IMG/VR virus record: IMGVR_UViG_2690316131_000023
Reading direction: 5' to 3' (one strand)
Length of the DNA: 34,605 nt
Source: a virus
Lineage: Duplodnaviria; Heunggongvirae; Uroviricota; Caudoviricetes
Positions 1 to 8,146 of the stretch are shown here, piece by piece (within the stretch, counting starts at the first letter, position 1; each line of letters opens with the position of its first letter). A model generated the notes under the pieces. It saw nothing but the letters and a program-made list of their open reading frames with translations, was not told where the DNA came from and ran no database searches. Both the position numbers and the translations under genes were made by a program.

Positions 1-177
<177 letters not shown>

Positions 178-244
178 CCAATTAATGAAATTCATGGCGT
201 AAACCCGCCGGGCATTCCTTTATCTAAATTCAGGAGAATTGATT

Positions 245-478
245 ATGCGTAATATTGAAACCCTCTCGACTAAAACCGGACCGGATGACGCAGGACTTAA
301 TATTTTACTGACAGAGGCTCGTCTGGAAGAACGTCGGGCAAGGGCTGAGGCAATGGCTGCCCGCCTTGATAGCCTTGCGTGTCATATCACATCCCGCCAG
401 CTAAACCACGTCGAAGCAGCAGAACTGCTGCGTGTGACTGCTGAAGCAATCCAGAACGAAGCGCAGGAGGTCCACTAA
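245..478 (+). CDS. small hypothetical early protein (P2 orf80-region-like)
   Basis: ORF 239-478; first ATG at 245 preceded by AGGAG (232-236); stop overlaps the next start (TAATG). Confidence 0.45.
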   Translation: MRNIETLSTKTGPDDAGLNILLTEARLEERRARAEAMAARLDSLACHITSRQLNHVEAAELLRVTAEAIQNEAQEVH

Positions 479-705
479 TGGCTGATGCAATGGATCTCGT
501 ACAGCAGCGCGTTGAAGAAGAACGCCAGCGCCATATCCGTGCTGCCCGTACCAAAACGCCGGGCGTGTCCCGCGTACTTTGCATTGAATGTGAAGCGCCA
601 ATTCCGCCAGCACGACGCCGCGCCATTCCGGGTGTGCAGCTTTGCATTACCTGTCAGGAAATCGCAGAGCTGAAAGGCAAGCACTACAACGGAGGTGCTG
701 TATGA
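478..705 (+). CDS. TraR/DksA-family C4 zinc-finger protein
   Basis: 75 aa with CxxC...CxxC (CIECEAPI...CITCQ) typical of the DksA/TraR zinc finger; GGAGG RBS at 464-468. Confidence 0.7.
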
Positions 706-1004
706 CAAGGGCAGTGCGTATCCATCAATTAAAAATTGCACCTAAGTATTTCAACGCTGTGGTTGCAGGTCAAAAGACGGCTGAACTTCGTAAAGACGAT
801 CGTGGCTATAAAGTTGGTGATGTTCTTTCTCTTTGCGAATGGAAGCATGCTGTATTTACGGGTAGGGAATGGGCCGCTGTTATCTCTCATGTGCTTCCGG
901 CTAATGACGTCATGGCAGTTTCAGAAAAATGGGTGATGCTATCAATTCGCCCATTAACCCCATTAGAAGCTTTAGGATATGTTATTGCAGGAGGTGCTGT
1001 ATGA
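702..1004 (+). CDS. hypothetical protein, possibly DUF3850/ASCH-like
   Basis: ORF 642-1004; internal ATG at 702 preceded by GGAGGTGCTGT, the same RBS context as the next gene; sits in an operon with dam. Domain call is recollection only. Confidence 0.4.
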
Positions 1005-1858
1005 GCACCATCCTGAAATGGGCGGGAAATAAAACCGCCATTATGTTCGAACTGAAAAAACACCTTCCTGCTGGCCCGCGACTGGTTGAACCTTTCGCGG
1101 GTTCCTGTGCTGTGATGATGGAGACGGATTACCCCAGCTATCTGGTTGCGGATATTAATCCTGATTTAATCAACCTCTATAAAAAGGTTGCCGCTGATTG
1201 TGAATCGTTTATATCTCGCGCCAGAGCTTTATTTGAGGAAGCAAACAGGGAGGTGGCTTATTACAACATAAGGCAGGAGTTTAATTACTCCACTGAAATT
1301 ACTGATTTCATGAAAGCGGTATATTTCCTGTATCTCAATCGTCATGGTTACCGTGGATTATGTCGCTATAACAAGAGCGGGCATTTCAACATTCCGTACG
1401 GTAATTATAAAAATCCGTATTTCCCTGAAAAAGAAATTCGCGCATTTGCAGAGAAAGCCCAGCGTGCAACGTTTATCTGCGCAAGCTTTGATGAAACGCT
1501 GGCGATGCTGCAGGTGGGGGATGTGGTGTATTGCGATCCGCCGTATGACGGTACGTTTTCCGGCTATCACACTGATGGTTTCACTGAAGATGACCAGTAT
1601 CACCTGGCATCCGTTCTTGAACATCGGTCATCAGAAGGACATCCGGTCATTGTTTCTAACAGTGATACATCCCTGATCCGTTCGCTGTATCGCAATTTTA
1701 CTCACCACTACATCAAGGCAAAACGCAGCATCGGTGTAGCAGCTGGTGAGAGTAAATCTTCAACAGAAATCATCGCTGTTTCCGGGCCGCGCTGCTGGGT
1801 GGGATTTGATCCTTCGCGTGGCGTGGATAGTTCTGCCGTGTACGGAGTGCGTGCATGA
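1001..1858 (+). CDS. dam: DNA adenine methyltransferase (Dam-like, N6-adenine)
   Basis: N-terminal ILKWAGNK and FAGSCAV (SAM-binding) plus the DPPY catalytic motif (VYCDPPYDG); start at the internal ATG 1001 with GGAGG RBS. Confidence 0.85.
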
Positions 1859-4269
1859 GCCATGCTGATATGAACAACTGCAGCGGCTTTAACGAGGTCG
1901 CCGCAGCATTCTCATGGAACAGCCCGAAAAAGGCCATTAACCCTTATCTGGACCCGGCGGAAGTTGCGCCGGTTTCTGTGCTTTCAAACCTGATCACTCT
2001 GTACGCTACCGATAACGAGCAGGAACAACTGCGCCGCGAGGCTCTGAGTGATCAGGTATGGGAGCGTTATTTCTTTAATGAATCACGTGATCCTGTCCAG
2101 CGCGAAATGGAGCAGGATAAGCTCATTAGCCGGGCAAAGCTGGCGCATGAGCAGCAGCGTTTTAATCCGGGCATGGTCATCCTGGCGGACGTTAACGCCC
2201 AGCCTTCCCATATCAGCAAGCCGCTGATGCAACGTATTGAATACTTCAGCAGCCTGGGCAGGCCAAAGGCTTATTCCCGCTATTTGCGTGAGACGATTAA
2301 GCCATGTCTGGAACGACTGGAGCATGTACGCGACAGTCAGCTATCCACTTCTTTTCGCTTTATGGCAAGCCATGAAGGGCTGGACGGTCTGCTGATCCTG
2401 CCTGAAATGAGTCAGGATCAGGTGAAACGCCTGTCCACCCTGGTAGCTGCGCATATGAGCATGTGCCTTGATGCCGCTTGTGGCGATTTGTATGCCACCG
2501 ATGACGTTAAGCCAGAAGAAATCCGCAAGACATGGGAAAAGGTGGCGGCGGAAACCCTGCGACTGGATGTCATACCACCTGCGTTTGAGCAACTCCGCCG
2601 GAAAAGAAACCGCCGTAAACCCGTGCCCTATGAACTCATTCCGGGGTCGCTGGCGCGTATGCTGTGCGCCGACTGGTGGTATCGGAAATTGTGGAAGATG
2701 CGTTGCGAATGGCGGGAAGAGCAGTTGCGTGCTGTTTGCCTGGTCAGCAAAAAAGCATCTCCCTATGTCAGCTATGAAGCCGTGATGCATAAACGTGAGC
2801 AGCGCCGTAAGTCGCTGGAGTTTTTCCGTTCTCATGAACTGGTGAACGAAGACGGCGACACGCTGGACATGGAGGATGTGGTAAACGCCAGCAGCAGCAA
2901 CCCTGCGCATCGCCGCAATGAGATGATGGCCTGTGTTAAAGGTCTGGAGCTTATCGCGGAAATGCGCGGTGACTGCGCCGTTTTCTACACCATCACCTGT
3001 CCGTCACGTTTCCATTCCACGCTAAATAACGGCAGGCCCAACCCGACCTGGACAAATGCGACGGTAAGACAAAGCAGTGATTATCTGGTCGGCATGTTTG
3101 CTGCATTTCGTAAGGCGATGCACAAAGCCGGGTTGCGCTGGTATGGCGTGCGGGTGGCTGAGCCGCATCATGACGGCACAGTTCACTGGCACCTGTTGTG
3201 TTTCATGCGCAAAAAAGACCGCCGCGCCATTACTGCATTGTTGCGTAAGTTTGCTATCCGTGAAGACCGCGAGGAGCTGGGTAATAACACGGGGCCACGC
3301 TTTAAGTCTGAGCTGATAAACCCGCGCAAAGGAACGCCGACTAGCTACATCGCGAAATACATCAGTAAGAACATTGACGGGCGTGGTCTGGCTGGCGAGA
3401 TCAGCAAGGAAACGGGTAAATCTCTGCGTGATAACGCTGAATACGTTAATGCCTGGGCGTCTCTGCATCGTGTTCAGCAATTCCGCTTCTTTGGCATTCC
3501 GGGGCGTCAGGCTTACCGTGAACTGCGATTGCTGGCTGGTCAGGCGGCAAGGCAACAGGGTGACAAAAAAGCAGGTGCGCCGGTACTGGATAACCCGCGC
3601 CTTGATGCCATTCTGGCTGCAGCTGATGCTGGTTGTTTTGCCACCTACATCATGAAGCAGGGCGGCGTACTGGTTCCCCGTAAATATCACCTCATCAGAA
3701 CCGCTTATGAAATCAACGAAGAGCCGACCGCCTATGGCGATCACGGCATTCGTATTTATGGCATCTGGTCACCCATTGCAGAGGGCAAAATCTGCACTCA
3801 TGCCGTGAAGTGGAAAATGGTTCGTAAGGCCGTTGACGTTCAGGAGGCGGCAGCCGACCAGGGCGCTTGCGCCCCTTGGACTCGTGGCAATAACTGTCCC
3901 CTTGCTGAAAATTTGAACCAACAGGAGAAAGATAAATCAGCTGATGGGGACACCAGAACGGATATTACCCGCATGGATGACAAGGAGTTGCACGATTATC
4001 TGCATAGTATGAGCAAAAAAGAGCGCCGGGAACTGGCAGCAAGGTTACGCCTGGTTAAGCCGAAACGGCGTAAAGACTACAAACAGCGAATTACAGATCA
4101 TCAGCGACAGCAGCTCGTCTATGAACTGAAGTCCAGAGGATTTGATGGCAGCGAGAAAGAGGTCGATTTACTCCTTCGCGGTGGCAGTATTCCGTCAGGA
4201 GCAGGCCTGCGTATCTTCTATCGGAACCAGCGTTTGCAGGAAGATGATAAGTGGAGAAACCTGTATTAA
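1855..4269 (+). CDS. A: P2 gpA-like rolling-circle replication initiator (replication endonuclease)
   Basis: 804 aa; HWHLL histidine motif and YIAKYISK tyrosine motif typical of P2/186 A proteins; canonical position. Confidence 0.9.
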
Positions 4270-4338
4270 TTACGCGGGTTAACAATTCGTGCTCTTAATA
4301 ATACCAGGCATATCAGGCTGATGAACGTAAAAAAACGT

Positions 4339-4381
4339 TTTACATCAGTAAGATTATTATATACTGTAAATATAAACAGTG
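4339..4381 (+). promoter_or_regulatory. candidate SOS promoter: -35 TTTACA (4339-4344), -10-like TACTGT overlapping a LexA box TACTGTaaatataaACAGTG (4362-4381)
   Basis: CTGT-N8-ACAG at 4364-4379 matches the LexA box consensus; it is part of a perfect 14-bp inverted repeat (4362-4375 / 4383-4396), about 40 bp upstream of ORF 4422. Confidence 0.55.
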
Positions 4382-4421
4382 GTTATATTTACAGTATTGC
4401 TTTGGTGTCATAGGAGGAAAG

Positions 4422-4610
4422 ATGCAGGACTATTTTTTGGAGTCTTTGAAGCTCCAGCGCATTGATTTTTTTCTTAAGCTTGTAGCGGCTAGTGAGTGTA
4501 GTGATGAAGAGAAGGGGCTGGCTCTGCAGTGGGTTTCTGAACTGACAGATGAACTCATGGCAAAAATCAGAACCCACGAATACAACCGCTCAATGGATGT
4601 CATCAGCTGA
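4422..4610 (+). CDS. small hypothetical protein (62 aa), first gene of the LexA-controlled pair; possibly the N-terminal part of a Tum-like antirepressor
   Basis: Strong RBS AGGAGG (4412-4417) then ATG 4422; overlaps the following DinI-like ORF in another frame. Confidence 0.45.
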   Translation: MQDYFLESLKLQRIDFFLKLVAASECSDEEKGLALQWVSELTDELMAKIRTHEYNRSMDVIS

Positions 4611-4620
4611 GGTGACTTTT

Positions 4621-4854
4621 ATGCGCATTGAAATAATGATCGATAAAGAGCAGAAGATTAGCCAGTCTACACTGGACGCCCTTGAATCCGAGCTTTACCG
4701 CAATCTGCGCCCCCTGTATCCCAAAACGGTAATTCGTATTCGCAAAGGTAGCTCTAACGGTGTGGAACTGACCGGACTGCAACTGGACGAAGAAAGAAAA
4801 CAAGTGATGAAAATTATGCAGAAGGTGTGGGAAGACGACAGCTGGCTGCATTAA
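4621..4854 (+). CDS. DinI-family protein (DinI/MsgA-like, 77 aa)
   Basis: MRIEIMIDK...LESELYRNLRPLYP...MKIMQKVWEDDSWL aligns by eye with E. coli DinI (MRIEVTIAK...ILQETWESADDW); start taken at internal ATG 4621. Confidence 0.75.
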   Translation: MRIEIMIDKEQKISQSTLDALESELYRNLRPLYPKTVIRIRKGSSNGVELTGLQLDEERKQVMKIMQKVWEDDSWLH

Positions 4855-4989
4855 GAAACGTTGCTGGCGTCTGAACTTGTTTCTGGCGTCAGCAAGGTTG
4901 AACAACGAGCCCTTGCGAGGCGTTAGCTCTGTAGTGCATGTCTATGCCGCATGAGATCGCATGATCGTTTGAGGATCGTTTTTGCTAAG

Positions 4990-5014
4990 GCCCGCCAGAA
5001 CTGGCGGGCTTTTG
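4990..5014 (+). terminator. rho-independent terminator (GCCCGCCAG-AA-CTGGCGGGC then TTTTG)
   Basis: Perfect 8-9 bp GC-rich stem at 4991-5008 followed by a T-run; downstream of the dinI-like gene. Confidence 0.55.
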
Positions 5015-5057
5015 CGTAGATCATGCACCTGCATGAAAACCACTACATAAAGCGGGC

Positions 5058-5076
5058 AGGCGTGGCGGGGATACGA
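5058..5076. other. candidate cos (cohesive end) site, 186/P2-like
   Basis: GGCGTGGCGGGGA at 5058-5070 matches my recollection of the first 13 nt of the 186 cohesive end (GGCGTGGCGGGGAAAGCAT; P2 GGCGAGGCGGGGAAAGCAC), followed by GCGCGCGCT. Confidence 0.5.
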
Positions 5077-5129
5077 GCGCGCGCTATCACGTAAAATAGG
5101 CAAAATACTTCTGGAAAACAGAAAGTTGA

Positions 5130-7076
<1,947 letters not shown>

Positions 7077-7117
7077 TGAACAGCCCTAACGTTATGAATG
7101 CTAAGGCTGATTTTTCG

Positions 7118-8146
7118 TTAAAATTTATATGGTTTGAATTGTAATATATTATCTTCAAGCCATTTATTTAATTCCTGCATCCTTTTCTGTAAGGGTATTA
7201 ATTCGTTCCTCACAAACACTAAACTCGCTTTTTCCACATCCCCAAACCCCCCGACATTATTTGGCATAATCCCCATCATTTGCGGTGGCACACGGTGCGC
7301 TGCCATCATGTCATCGCGGCTGACATTTTTGATATTCAGAAACTCATCCTTCGCCGCCACTTCTGACAACGGGATAATCTGAAGCCCGTCCTTTTTACCG
7401 TTAGGCGAGTACATAAACAGGTTACGGAAGTTACCAGGACCTTTGGCGCTTTTCATCGCATTGCGGAGGTTGTTCACATCCTCCTGGTTCTGCGCTGCAT
7501 CGGTCATGTACATGATGAAGCCTGCATGACTGCCGTTAATGTAATACTTGCGGCGGAACAGCGTGGCGGACTCGTTGAGCAGAGCTGACGGAATGGCAGA
7601 AAGATAACCGGGCAGGCCGTAGATCTCCTGGTTGATGTCCGGTTCCATCAGATGAAAAATGTTGCCTTTCGTGAACTGATACGGCTGCGTAGTCATGCCG
7701 TATTGCACAAACCAGTAGGTATCAAGGTCTAACCCGCGTCGGGTGTATTTTGCCAGTGCAGGCTCAAGGGCGATAACTTCACCGAAGCGGTTCGTGCGTT
7801 TCTCCAGGTAGGCGTTACCAAAAACCAGATAGTCCTGTACAAAACGCGAAAAAGCCTGCTGGCTGAGCAGCGGGTGAGGGATGTAGGTGCTGGTCAGAAT
7901 GTTGCACTTCACTGCAATCGGTGAGCTGTGATGCACGGCGGCGCGGAAGGTTCGCGCCAGTCCGTCGAAACTCACAGGCGGCTCGTACCAACGATCCATC
8001 TGTACGCATTCCACATAGTCCAGCAGTTCGCGGCGGTCCAGAACAGGAACGGGATCACCGAAGCTGAATGCTTCGGCTGAAGTCTGGCTTTTATGCTGGA
8101 TCTGTTTCGTCGACGCAGCGCGGTTCTTCTTACTCTTTCCCATCAA
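7118..8146 (-). CDS. Q: P2 gpQ-like portal protein
   Basis: 342 aa, minus strand, directly downstream of terminase P in the canonical Q-P arrangement. Confidence 0.9.
   Translation of the reverse strand: MMGKSKKNRAASTKQIQHKSQTSAEAFSFGDPVPVLDRRELLDYVECVQMDRWYEPPVSFDGLARTFRAAVHHSSPIAVKCNILTSTYIPHPLLSQQAFSRFVQDYLVFGNAYLEKRTNRFGEVIALEPALAKYTRRGLDLDTYWFVQYGMTTQPYQFTKGNIFHLMEPDINQEIYGLPGYLSAIPSALLNESATLFRRKYYINGSHAGFIMYMTDAAQNQEDVNNLRNAMKSAKGPGNFRNLFMYSPNGKKDGLQIIPLSEVAAKDEFLNIKNVSRDDMMAAHRVPPQMMGIMPNNVGGFGDVEKASLVFVRNELIPLQKRMQELNKWLEDNILQFKPYKF

Follow-up and report, generated by a model that had tools for sequence, protein, structure and literature searches.

A two-gene module behind LexA boxes, probably the split tum operon of a 186/Fels-2-type prophage

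Organization of the locus downstream of gene A

In the window, by which we mean the whole 34,605-nt stretch of viral DNA analysed here, gene A ends at position 4269 and is followed from about position 4339 by a compact module. It comprises a putative SOS promoter with two LexA boxes, a 62-aa ORF, a 77-aa DinI-like ORF and a structured 3' region (Table 1), and it adjoins retron Ec67. The same order, gene A and then the module, is found in phages 186 and PSP3 and in the Fels-2 and DuoHS prophages.

Table 1. Features of the module and its 3' flank (positions in the window).
Feature	Position	Strand	Basis or remark
Putative -35 TTTACA of SOS promoter (p95 equivalent)	4339-4344	+	Sequence; analogy with 186 p95
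Putative -10 TACTGT	4362-4367	+	17 nt after TTTACA; left end of box 1
LexA box 1, TACTGTAAATATAAACAGTG	4362-4381	.	Overlaps putative -10; 17/20 against consensus TACTG(TA)5CAGTA
LexA box 2, CAGTGGTTATATTTACAGTA	4377-4396	.	15/20 against consensus; 5-bp overlap with box 1
Shine-Dalgarno AGGAGG of 62-aa gene	4412-4417	+	4 nt before ATG 4422
tumA-type gene, 62-aa antirepressor, homologue of 186 Tum N-terminal half	4422-4610	+	phrog_698, orthologues
Shine-Dalgarno GAGGTGA of DinI-like gene	4609-4615	+	Overlaps tumA stop codon
tumB-type gene, 77-aa DinI-family protein	4621-4854	+	PF06183, phrog_189
Long hairpin in 3' untranslated region, just past DinI stop	4861-4895	+	RNA fold
Likely rho-independent terminator, GCCCGCCAG/CTGGCGGGC stem then TTTT	4987-5013	+	Inverted repeat, predicted fold

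The core of box 1 is a perfect CTGT-N8-ACAG, and the pattern TACTGT-N8-ACAGT occurs at this single site in the whole window, in which 0.32 matches with up to one mismatch would be expected by chance. In each of 11 other loci, drawn from seven annotated Peduoviridae genera and from E. coli prophages, the homologous small ORF, or else full-length tum, is likewise preceded by a LexA box. The promoter sequence flanking the box has diverged among these loci, and retention of the box is more than chance. Box 1 is identical in Fels-2, DuoHS and the prophage of NZ_CP148326, as is the TTTACA hexamer in the aligned loci. It ends 40 nt before the start codon of the 62-aa gene, whose AGGAGG motif is unchanged across four aligned loci. 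The near-consensus LexA box about 40 bp upstream of a strongly RBS-led 62-aa ORF, described earlier in a sequence-only reading of this DNA, is thereby confirmed.

The -35 and -10 elements were placed on the model of p95, the annotated promoter of 186 tum (-35 TTCACA, -10 TACTGT), whose -10 forms the left end of the LexA site in the phage 186 record. By this analogy, the -10 overlapped by box 1 is best read as the TACTGT hexamer given in Table 1. The overlap between box and -10 that had been proposed from the sequence thus stands by comparison with p95, while a consensus promoter scan did not call the SOS promoter at 4339-4367. The LexA box lies directly upstream of the operon and overlaps its putative promoter, as in Tum-type SOS operons.

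The region downstream of the DinI-like gene is highly structured (4855-5030; predicted folding energy -75.7 kcal/mol, z = -4.4 relative to shuffled sequences). The inverted repeat at its distal end likely terminates the two-gene SOS transcript; a terminator scan missed it because its T run comprises four residues. It is located upstream of the retron msr-msd, which was recognised by its flanking inverted repeats, while an Rfam search of 4200-7200 found nothing. This order of terminator and retron fits the title of a paper on retrons Ec67 and Ec86 (Dodd and Egan, 1996, as listed in PMC6868368).

The first 143 nt of the window are the end of an IS5-family element inserted in the early operon of the prophage. 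The window starts in this element and contains no CI gene, and the prophage may for these reasons be defective even if the tum module fires. The NZ_CP148326 prophage, whose early region is 99.9% identical to window positions 144-5130, carries a 186-type int-CI-apl-cII-fil immunity region, as does DuoHS. A 186-type CI with apl/cII, as would be expected of a cognate repressor, is present in NZ_CP148326 and DuoHS, and likewise in Fels-2; none lies in the window, which begins inside the early operon.

The operator and its colicin parallel

A perfect 14-bp inverted repeat had been reported around the LexA box, and we recovered it with arms at 4362-4375 and 4384-4397, inside a longer repeat with 18-nt arms (4361-4378 and 4380-4397; 94% complementary). 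Both repeats are explained by two overlapping LexA boxes, the centres of which are 15 bp apart; the left half of box 2 reads GTG, not CTG. Two 20-bp boxes thus overlap by a few bp, with their outer half-sites in a long palindrome, which is the layout of a double operator. In sequence, the region of the 14-bp repeat corresponds to a double LexA operator with overlapping boxes, of the kind found at colicin genes. Window positions 4360-4398 are 89.7% identical over 39 nt to the operator that precedes colicin-like bacteriocin genes of Col plasmids. The double SOS boxes of colicin and klebicin genes have the same geometry and a near-identical sequence (TACTGTATATAAAACCAGTGGTTATATGTACAGTA in pCKO3 vs. 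TACTGTAAATATAAACAGTGGTTATATTTACAGTA in the window), and their start codons lie about 25-46 nt away, a distance comparable to that in the window. The likeness is limited to the operator of about 40 bp, since colicin and klebicin operons contain unrelated genes (bacteriocin, immunity, lysis) in place of an antirepressor and a DinI homologue.

The overlapping colicin boxes bind two LexA dimers, resulting in very tight repression (PMC2994835), and by analogy both boxes of the window operator are probably occupied by LexA. The outer half-site TACAGT is retained at a fixed 15-bp offset in all Fels-2-type loci, and a single LexA box is found in 186, PSP3 and ESSI-2-type loci. We tentatively posit, at odds a little short of even, that in Fels-2/DuoHS-type prophages the single 186/PSP3-type box has been replaced by a colicin-type double operator. 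If both boxes bind LexA, this would create a tighter switch than that of phage 186, with a higher threshold and later firing, and the near-identity would suggest that Col plasmids and P2-like prophages have exchanged a promoter-operator module.

The 18-bp palindrome might instead be no second LexA site, serving as the operator of another regulator (e.g., a phage protein) or as a DNA or RNA hairpin. This would agree with the weaker match of box 2 and its GTG half-site, as well as with the 14-bp symmetry, which is not strictly kept (Fels-2 and DuoHS differ from the window at one or two positions of the box 2 spacer). We consider it unlikely in view of the almost base-for-base recurrence of the 35-bp arrangement upstream of colicin-like bacteriocin genes, where two LexA dimers bind, and of the Fels-2-type loci, which conserve the TACAGT half-site at its offset and not the potential to form a hairpin. 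An RNA hairpin in particular would be excluded if TACTGT is the -10 element, because transcription would then start inside the palindrome and the RNA would lack the hairpin. A double LexA operator is the reading that we carry forward.

The 62-aa protein, its DinI-like partner and their junction

Pairwise BLASTP of the 62-aa protein against the N-terminal half of 186 Tum and against PSP3 TumA gave no alignment, and profile methods were therefore used. The ORF matches phrog_698 (E = 3.6e-38), phrog_8554 (2.4e-8) and phrog_1993 (2.2e-3), and the same three families are matched by Tum residues 1-70 (E = 6.7e-6, 3.3e-12 and 2e-23, respectively), collinearly over positions 7-44 in the case of phrog_698. 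With hhalign, columns 2-43 of the ORF pair with columns 2-43 of the Tum N-terminal half (P = 4.7e-4; a probability of 32%, from shallow alignments), and in a MAFFT alignment the first 52 columns are collinear, with E7, R13, L20, C26, A34, E40 and K48 conserved. The protein is furthermore identical at 61 of 62 residues to Fels-2 STM2728 and to DuoHS Tum (ECHS_RS04495). Homology of the upstream product to the N-terminal half of Tum, and to TumA, is thus supported by the PHROG cross-matches and by its DuoHS orthologue. The alignment of both ORFs to Tum envisaged in the sequence-only reading accordingly succeeded for the DinI-like protein and, through PHROG, for the 62-aa ORF, where BLASTP had failed; the resemblance to Tum N-terminal regions on which that reading hinged is present.

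A Pfam search assigned no family to the 62-aa ORF, and a sequence comparison with solved structures yielded no match. AlphaFold2 models the protein as a helical hairpin (pLDDT 89.6), for which Foldseek returned no significant match in the PDB, generic two-helix matches being the only ones. When 1.84 billion representatives were searched by profile, the N-domain was free-standing in 114 clusters (median length 68 aa) and fused in 2. TumA-like ORFs with a LexA box are also found in ESSI-2, ESSI2_ev015 and vB_YenM_06.16-2, where no DinI gene is annotated downstream. The same TumA (98-100% identical) is paired with CI repressors that are 41-55% identical overall and conserved mainly in the N-terminal DNA-binding region. 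Several prophages that share a cell but differ in CI might consequently be induced by one and the same antirepressor; we found no literature report on binding of CI by the Fels-2-type 62-aa protein.

The downstream product is homologous to DinI over its full length, corresponding to TumB and to the C-terminal half of Tum. The 77-aa DinI-like ORF proposed from the sequence matches PF06183 with E = 6.6e-23 (81.3 bits against a curated cut-off of 24.2 bits; residues 14-76 on profile positions 1-63 of 63) and covers positions 71-148 of 151 in phrog_189. In an alignment with the solved structure of E. coli DinI (1GHH), its residues 1-75 pair with residues 1-77 (E = 2.7e-6), and the acidic WEDDSW segment at the C-terminal end is covered. 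The protein is identical in Fels-2 and DuoHS, 78% identical to PSP3 TumB and 41% identical to residues 71-145 of 186 Tum (E = 3e-24). E. coli DinI binds RecA filaments (references cited in PMC3121763), and it is plausible that the DinI-like protein modulates RecA in an accessory role, which is compatible with an antirepressor as the main effector.

Functional evidence is available for the DuoHS orthologue. Both a deletion of tum and a lexA(Ind-) allele abolished mitomycin-C-induced lysis and viral foci in a 2025 study (PMC12055606); the DuoHS tum gene carries the locus tag given above. The deletion primer joins ATAGGAGGAAAGATG to TGAGGTGACTTTTATGCGCATTG (PMC11195241), which correspond to window positions 4410-4424 and 4608-4630; the 62-aa ORF alone was therefore removed, with the DinI gene left intact. 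The deletion shows that the 62-aa gene is necessary for induction, not that it is sufficient.

This result bears directly on the view that the operon is a RecA/SOS modulator only, with the DinI-like protein as effector and the 62-aa ORF as an unrelated small protein or leader peptide. The 62-aa ORF, a 'hypothetical' protein in databases, has indeed no match nearly as strong as that of the DinI-like protein to its family, and LexA-controlled DinI homologues are common in prophages (PMC3121763). Loss of induction after in-frame removal of the 62-aa orthologue nevertheless makes this view very improbable, as do the profiles that group the ORF with stand-alone families of TumA-like proteins and with the N-terminal half of Tum, and the LexA-boxed TumA-like ORFs without an annotated DinI partner. 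Non-polar dinI deletions, moreover, had no significant effect on the induction of Gifsy prophages (PMC3121763). We retain the antirepressor reading.

The two ORFs had been described as overlapping, which we could not reproduce: the TGA stop codon of the 62-aa gene (4608-4610) is separated by 10 nt from the ATG of the DinI-like gene. An overlap appears only if the DinI frame is mechanically extended to 101 aa, starting from ATG 4549; the Pfam match then begins at residue 38. Among the relatives the junction measures 3, 10, 11 or 12 nt and is in each case purine-rich right before the ATG, which suggests that the two cistrons are translationally coupled. The two-cistron layout, with a ribosome-binding site for each cistron, is kept in Fels-2, DuoHS, SopEPhi, MLG42, ST437-OXA245phi4.1 and PSP3, in relative frames of 0, 1 and 2. 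Both cistrons have a pN/pS of 0.12-0.18 at a pS of about 0.5 and are, on this measure, under purifying selection. As both are so constrained and their relative frame varies among relatives, the split is best taken as ancestral, without a frameshift, and the fusing frameshift that had been suspected within 4540-4625 finds no support.

That a recent frameshift has left the pair as an inactive remnant of a full-length 186-type tum, or that programmed ribosomal frameshifting fuses the two ORFs, is scarcely credible: the two ORFs are together about Tum-sized as had been remarked (62 + 77 vs. 146 aa) and lie in different frames (+1), with the DinI frame open back to 4549, but the gaps and relative frames of the conserved split layout vary among relatives and thus leave no single conserved frameshift, both ORFs are constrained, the module or part of it is matched in 1281 of 5426 complete E. 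coli genomes, free-standing N-domain clusters far outnumber fused ones, and deletion of the 62-aa ORF alone abolishes DuoHS induction. A terminator-like hairpin flagged by a scan across the junction (4599-4616) was dropped, as its stability does not exceed that of shuffled sequence (z = -0.8).

Split tum operons and the proposed switch

The closest relatives of the module are DuoHS (ECHS_RS04495 and ECHS_RS04500) and Fels-2 (STM2728 and STM2726.1), which carry essentially the same two genes after gene A, with identical ribosome-binding sites and an identical 10-nt junction; the DuoHS prophage lies beside ybjL, as does that of the window. The anatomy of the operon, its homologies and the conservation of its operator are observed directly in the sequences analysed here. 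Homology to the window ends right past the DinI stop codon, where DuoHS and Fels-2 continue with further ORFs (225-aa and 243-aa hypothetical proteins) and the window with its structured 3' region, terminator and retron Ec67. The IS5 end in the early operon is a further difference of the window prophage. According to Lemire et al. (2011; PMC3121763), Tum joins an antirepressor and a DinI part in one fusion protein, and tum is split in Fels-2 and PSP3, with antirepressor activity in the upstream gene. The primary paper on Fels-2 tum is that of Bunny, Liu and Roth (2002), as cited in PMC3121763.

In PSP3, a LexA box, a 60-aa tumA and a 77-aa DinI homologue, tumB, follow gene A as in the window, and tumA is annotated as 'similar to 5' end 186 tum; UV induction of prophage'. 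PSP3 TumA shares about 22% identity with the 62-aa protein in the multiple alignment, a divergence that possibly reflects adaptation to different CI repressors. PSP3 further differs in its one LexA box (19/20), located 20 nt from the start codon, whereas the window has a double box, and in its cistrons, which are in the same frame with a stop codon and a 3-nt gap between them.

Phage 186 provides the fused counterpart. Its Tum (146 aa) is expressed from the LexA-repressed p95, with the -10 within the box as in the window, and tum follows replication gene A near the right genome end. The description of Tum in the sequence-only reading as LexA-regulated, encoded near the right genome end and DinI-like in its C-terminal part is consistent with the 186 record and with our alignment. 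The N-terminal part is a homologue of the 62-aa ORF at the profile level, and the 186 record lists a truncated Tum starting from an internal GTG at residue 71, which aligns with Met1 of the window DinI-like protein. In 186, both parts reside in one polypeptide with a linker of about 25 residues, whereas they are split in the window; 186 has one LexA box, and orf97 is next in its operon. Tum binds CI and blocks its binding to DNA (Shearwin et al., 1998, as summarised in PMC3121763).

The GfoA and GftA operons of the Gifsy prophages likewise place a small antirepressor and a DinI homologue under a LexA box, and binding, rather than cleavage, inactivates the repressor (PMC3121763). They differ from the window in that dinI comes first and in that the phages are lambdoid, with other repressor and antirepressor families (PMC3121763). 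No tum module is present in the P2 record. P2 orf91 was considered as a DinI-like gene and rejected, as the record gives Orf91 as a DUF3850 protein.

We posit, with a probability of about 0.9, that this module serves a 186/Fels-2-type prophage (Peduoviridae) as its SOS operon, with tum split into tumA and tumB. The sequence-only reading of a split, Tum-like and LexA-controlled module in a 186-like, SOS-inducible prophage is in this respect supported by the profile links to Tum, by the DuoHS orthologue and by the split genes of PSP3 and Fels-2. By analogy, the window copy is expected to behave like its orthologues with regard to LexA control, induction and CI binding. In an undamaged cell, LexA on the double operator over the -10 would keep the operon silent. 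Upon DNA damage, activated RecA would promote self-cleavage of LexA, and the derepressed operon would yield the helical-hairpin TumA-type protein and the DinI-family TumB-type protein from adjacent, probably coupled cistrons on a transcript ending at the terminator near 5010. The 62-residue antirepressor would then inactivate a 186-type CI, which is not cleaved by RecA, and thereby allow lytic growth. The DinI-like protein would be accessory, most likely modulating RecA filaments, and insufficient for induction.

The split Tum SOS switch of 186/Fels-2-type prophages is already documented, and the finding is in this sense correct but ordinary. We met neither the double operator at Fels-2/DuoHS tum nor the pairing of one TumA with several CI repressors in the literature that could be searched, which did not extend to Bunny et al. 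(2002), and an earlier description is possible. The tum module marks the prophage as belonging to the SOS-inducible 186/Fels-2 type and not to the P2 type, which is not inducible. Antibiotics that damage DNA should trigger the window operon and, in related intact prophages (found in about one in four complete E. coli genomes), lead to the release of phage. The colicin-like double operator adds a small, testable refinement concerning the induction threshold. The practical value lies in annotation, in that the 62-aa ORF should be named a TumA-type antirepressor. Most records give it as a 'hypothetical protein' or, misleadingly, as a 'levan regulatory protein'.

The SOS module and its characterised relatives

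The LexA box, the inverted repeat, the 62-aa ORF led by a ribosome-binding site and the DinI-like ORF that the sequence-only reading described downstream of gene A are all present. The two ORFs were also said to overlap; the coding regions are in fact separate, and only a mechanical 101-aa reading from ATG 4549 produces the overlap. LexA box 1 is the sole site of its kind found by a motif scan across the 34.6-kb window. The product of the 77-aa ORF is a complete member of the DinI family (Pfam PF06183, E = 6.6e-23); its residues 1-75 align with the solved structure of E. coli DinI (1GHH). In the AlphaFold2 model (pLDDT 89.6), the 62-aa protein forms a helical hairpin, with one helix at residues 2-23 and the other at 28-61.

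Features of the SOS module, the retron and the prophage end in the window, with the CI genes of comparison loci L003, L005 and L015 (own coordinates)
Feature	Position	Details
Gene A	ends 4269	P2/186-type replication endonuclease, 804 aa
AT-rich promoter region	4339-4344, 4362-4367	TTTACA and TACTGT, spacing 17 nt
Inverted repeat, 18 nt	4361-4378, 4380-4397	94% complementary
LexA box 1	4362-4381	TACTGTAAATATAAACAGTG; 17/20 consensus positions
LexA box 2 (putative)	4377-4396	CAGTGGTTATATTTACAGTA; 15/20, weaker; shares 5 bp with box 1
Ribosome-binding site, 62-aa ORF	4412-4417	AGGAGG
62-aa ORF	4422-4610	
Ribosome-binding site, DinI-like gene		GAGGTGA; overlaps stop codon of 62-aa ORF
77-aa DinI-like ORF	4621-4854	begins 10 nt past 62-aa ORF
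Long hairpin	4861-4895	
Terminator (predicted)	about 4987-5013	
Retron Ec67 (Retron-Eco2), canonical	5148-7076	
Retron inverted repeats	5148-5160, 5266-5278	ACGCATGTAGGCA and TGCCTGCATGCGT; flank msr-msd
Retron reverse transcriptase	starts ATG 5316	586 aa
ogr, right end of prophage	31499-31750	abuts host ybjL, ybjM, grxA (31750-34605)
CI, NZ_CP148326 prophage	L003:2816-3412	
CI, DuoHS	L005:3700-4269	
CI, Fels-2	L015:3592-4224	

The 62-aa protein is identical at 61 of 62 positions to STM2728 of Fels-2 and to ECHS_RS04495 of DuoHS, a prophage of E. coli HS. The DinI-like protein does not differ among window, Fels-2 and DuoHS, and LexA box 1, both ribosome-binding sites and the cistron junction have the same sequence in all three. 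The tum gene of the DuoHS study is ECHS_RS04495 according to its supplement, and the deletion primer joins ATAGGAGGAAAGATG to TGAGGTGACTTTTATGCGCATTG (preprint PMC11195241). Compared with the sequence, this deletion covers exactly the 62-aa ORF and spares the DinI gene. The DinI-like protein is therefore insufficient for induction, since it is still present in the non-inducible delta-tum strain. In PSP3, tumA (60 aa) is annotated as 'similar to 5' end 186 tum; UV induction of prophage' and tumB as 'similar to dinI and 3' end of 186 tum'; the pair is preceded by a LexA box, and TumB is 78% identical to the DinI-like protein. Lemire et al. (2011; PMC3121763) noted that Tum resembles an antirepressor-DinI fusion and that a stop codon splits the tum of Fels-2 and PSP3 into two genes. 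Together with the profile matches to Tum described below, these identities, annotations and published observations support the interpretation as a split Tum-like SOS antirepressor, a feature already known as PSP3 tumA/tumB and as the tum of Fels-2 and DuoHS.

Database names for the 62-aa protein are uninformative or misleading: most entries read 'hypothetical protein', UniRef and some Klebsiella phage records have 'levan regulatory (domain) protein', and the equivalent gene is named tum only in PSP3 and one Yersinia phage.

Homology to 186 Tum and the split layout

Phage 186 makes its Tum (146 aa) from p95, a promoter under LexA repression; the -10 of p95 (TACTGT) is also the leftmost part of the LexA site (186 record). 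The DinI-like protein is 41% identical to Tum residues 71-145 (E = 3e-24), and the alignment starts exactly at the internal GTG start annotated for truncated Tum in that record. BLASTP found no similarity between the 62-aa ORF and the N-terminal half of Tum. Profiles do link the two: the 62-aa ORF is a member of phrog_698 (E = 3.6e-38) with further matches to phrog_8554 (2.4e-8) and phrog_1993 (2.2e-3), and Tum residues 1-70 match the same families (6.7e-6, at collinear positions 7-44; 3.3e-12; 2e-23). Direct comparison of the two families by hhalign mutually aligned columns 2-43 (P = 4.7e-4), and MAFFT aligned them gapless over the first 52 columns, with E7, R13, L20, C26, A34, E40 and K48 conserved.

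A frameshift fusing the two ORFs, as the earlier reading had also considered, is contradicted by the conserved layout of separate cistrons. Across six Fels-2-type loci and PSP3, the cistron gaps are 3, 10, 11 or 12 nt, the relative frames 0, 1 and 2, and every junction is purine-rich immediately 5' of the ATG; pN/pS is 0.12-0.18 for both cistrons at pS ~0.5. The module is split, not broken. When 1.84 billion representative proteins were searched by profile, 114 clusters matched the N-domain alone (median length 68 aa) and only 2 were fused forms, long outliers being start-calling or frameshift artefacts. LexA-boxed TumA-like ORFs of 60-74 aa without an annotated DinI gene downstream occur in ESSI2_ev015, ESSI-2 and vB_YenM_06.16-2 (loci L010, L011 and L012), so this type of switch can dispense with the DinI partner. 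On these counts the free-standing small antirepressor is the common form, with an optional partner, and the fused 186 Tum the exception. The TumA-like ORF of ESSI-2 is unannotated in its record. Of 5426 complete E. coli genomes, 1281 match all or part of the module, BL21(DE3) among them.

The operator and the proposed switch

The 14/18-bp palindrome can be explained by the weaker putative box 2, which overlaps box 1. This two-box arrangement is present in all Fels-2-type loci examined, in contrast to the single LexA box of 186, PSP3, ESSI-2, ev015 and the Yersinia phage. Hundreds of small Col plasmids carry, 5' of colicin-like bacteriocin genes, an operator that is 89.7% identical to the 39 nt at 4360-4398; in both pCKO3 and pF2_18C_Col, ~40 nt separate the end of this match from the bacteriocin start codon. 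We infer that, with the double operator, the Fels-2-type switch would be repressed more tightly and need more damage to fire; its colicin-type character is a minor open point.

Very probably, LexA represses the promoter of the two-gene operon and, upon its self-cleavage after DNA damage, a two-gene transcript is made that stops at the terminator near 5010. The 62-residue protein would then inactivate the non-cleavable 186-type repressor CI. A probable role of the DinI-like protein is to tune the activity of RecA filaments. Reports of direct binding to CI concern 186 Tum only. In DuoHS, the NZ_CP148326 prophage and Fels-2, TumA is 98-100% identical and the CI repressors share only 41-55% identity overall, with invariant positions mostly N-terminal (about residues 6-70) and a divergent C-terminal half. 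This suggests that TumA may contact the conserved N-terminal part of CI, or that one TumA may act on several different CI proteins; the pairing is likewise a minor open point.

Prophage context and retron Ec67

The window holds a Peduoviridae prophage of the 186-like type, running from the early operon through gene A, the SOS module, the structured 3' region with its terminator and retron Ec67 to the portal and terminase genes (minus strand), then late genes to D and ogr, followed by host ybjL, ybjM and grxA. In E. coli HS, DuoHS likewise adjoins ybjL just past ogr, with rcdA on its other side. Neither an integrase nor a repressor gene was found within the window. Positions 1-143 are one end, with the terminal inverted repeat (...GGAACTTGTTCGCACCTTCC), of an IS5-family element that sits in the early-operon gene for a DUF5347 protein; matches to related prophages begin only at position 144. 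Since this end breaks up the early operon, with the immunity region (outside the window) on one side and the replication genes on the other, the prophage may be defective. Its tum module is intact, and prophages related to it could still be acted on in trans. The NZ_CP148326 prophage (E. coli Z1323HEC0475), 99.9% identical over 144-5130, has a 186-type immunity region with integrase, CI, Apl-like gene, CII and Fil.

Exactly at the DinI stop codon, homology to Fels-2 and DuoHS stops. The region that follows (4855-5090) is highly structured (z = -4.4), and this 230-bp segment is common to many E. coli prophages, with similarity ending near 5085-5095. Such a pattern is consistent with a hotspot for cargo between the SOS operon and cos. 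Retron Ec67 is identified by the repeats flanking msr-msd, the first ending in a CAGA motif, and by the 586-aa reverse transcriptase, which agree with the description of Retron-Eco2 (PMC6868368). No Rfam family matched the retron region. A 646-aa mechanical ORF from 5136 reads through msr-msd and was rejected as an artefact. Directly 5' of gene A lies a DNA adenine methylase gene (929-1858; mechanical ORF of 309 aa, 858 nt in RefSeq), the one that publications call the 'retron Ec67 Dam methylase'; it belongs to the conserved early operon of Fels-2/DuoHS-type prophages, not to the retron itself.
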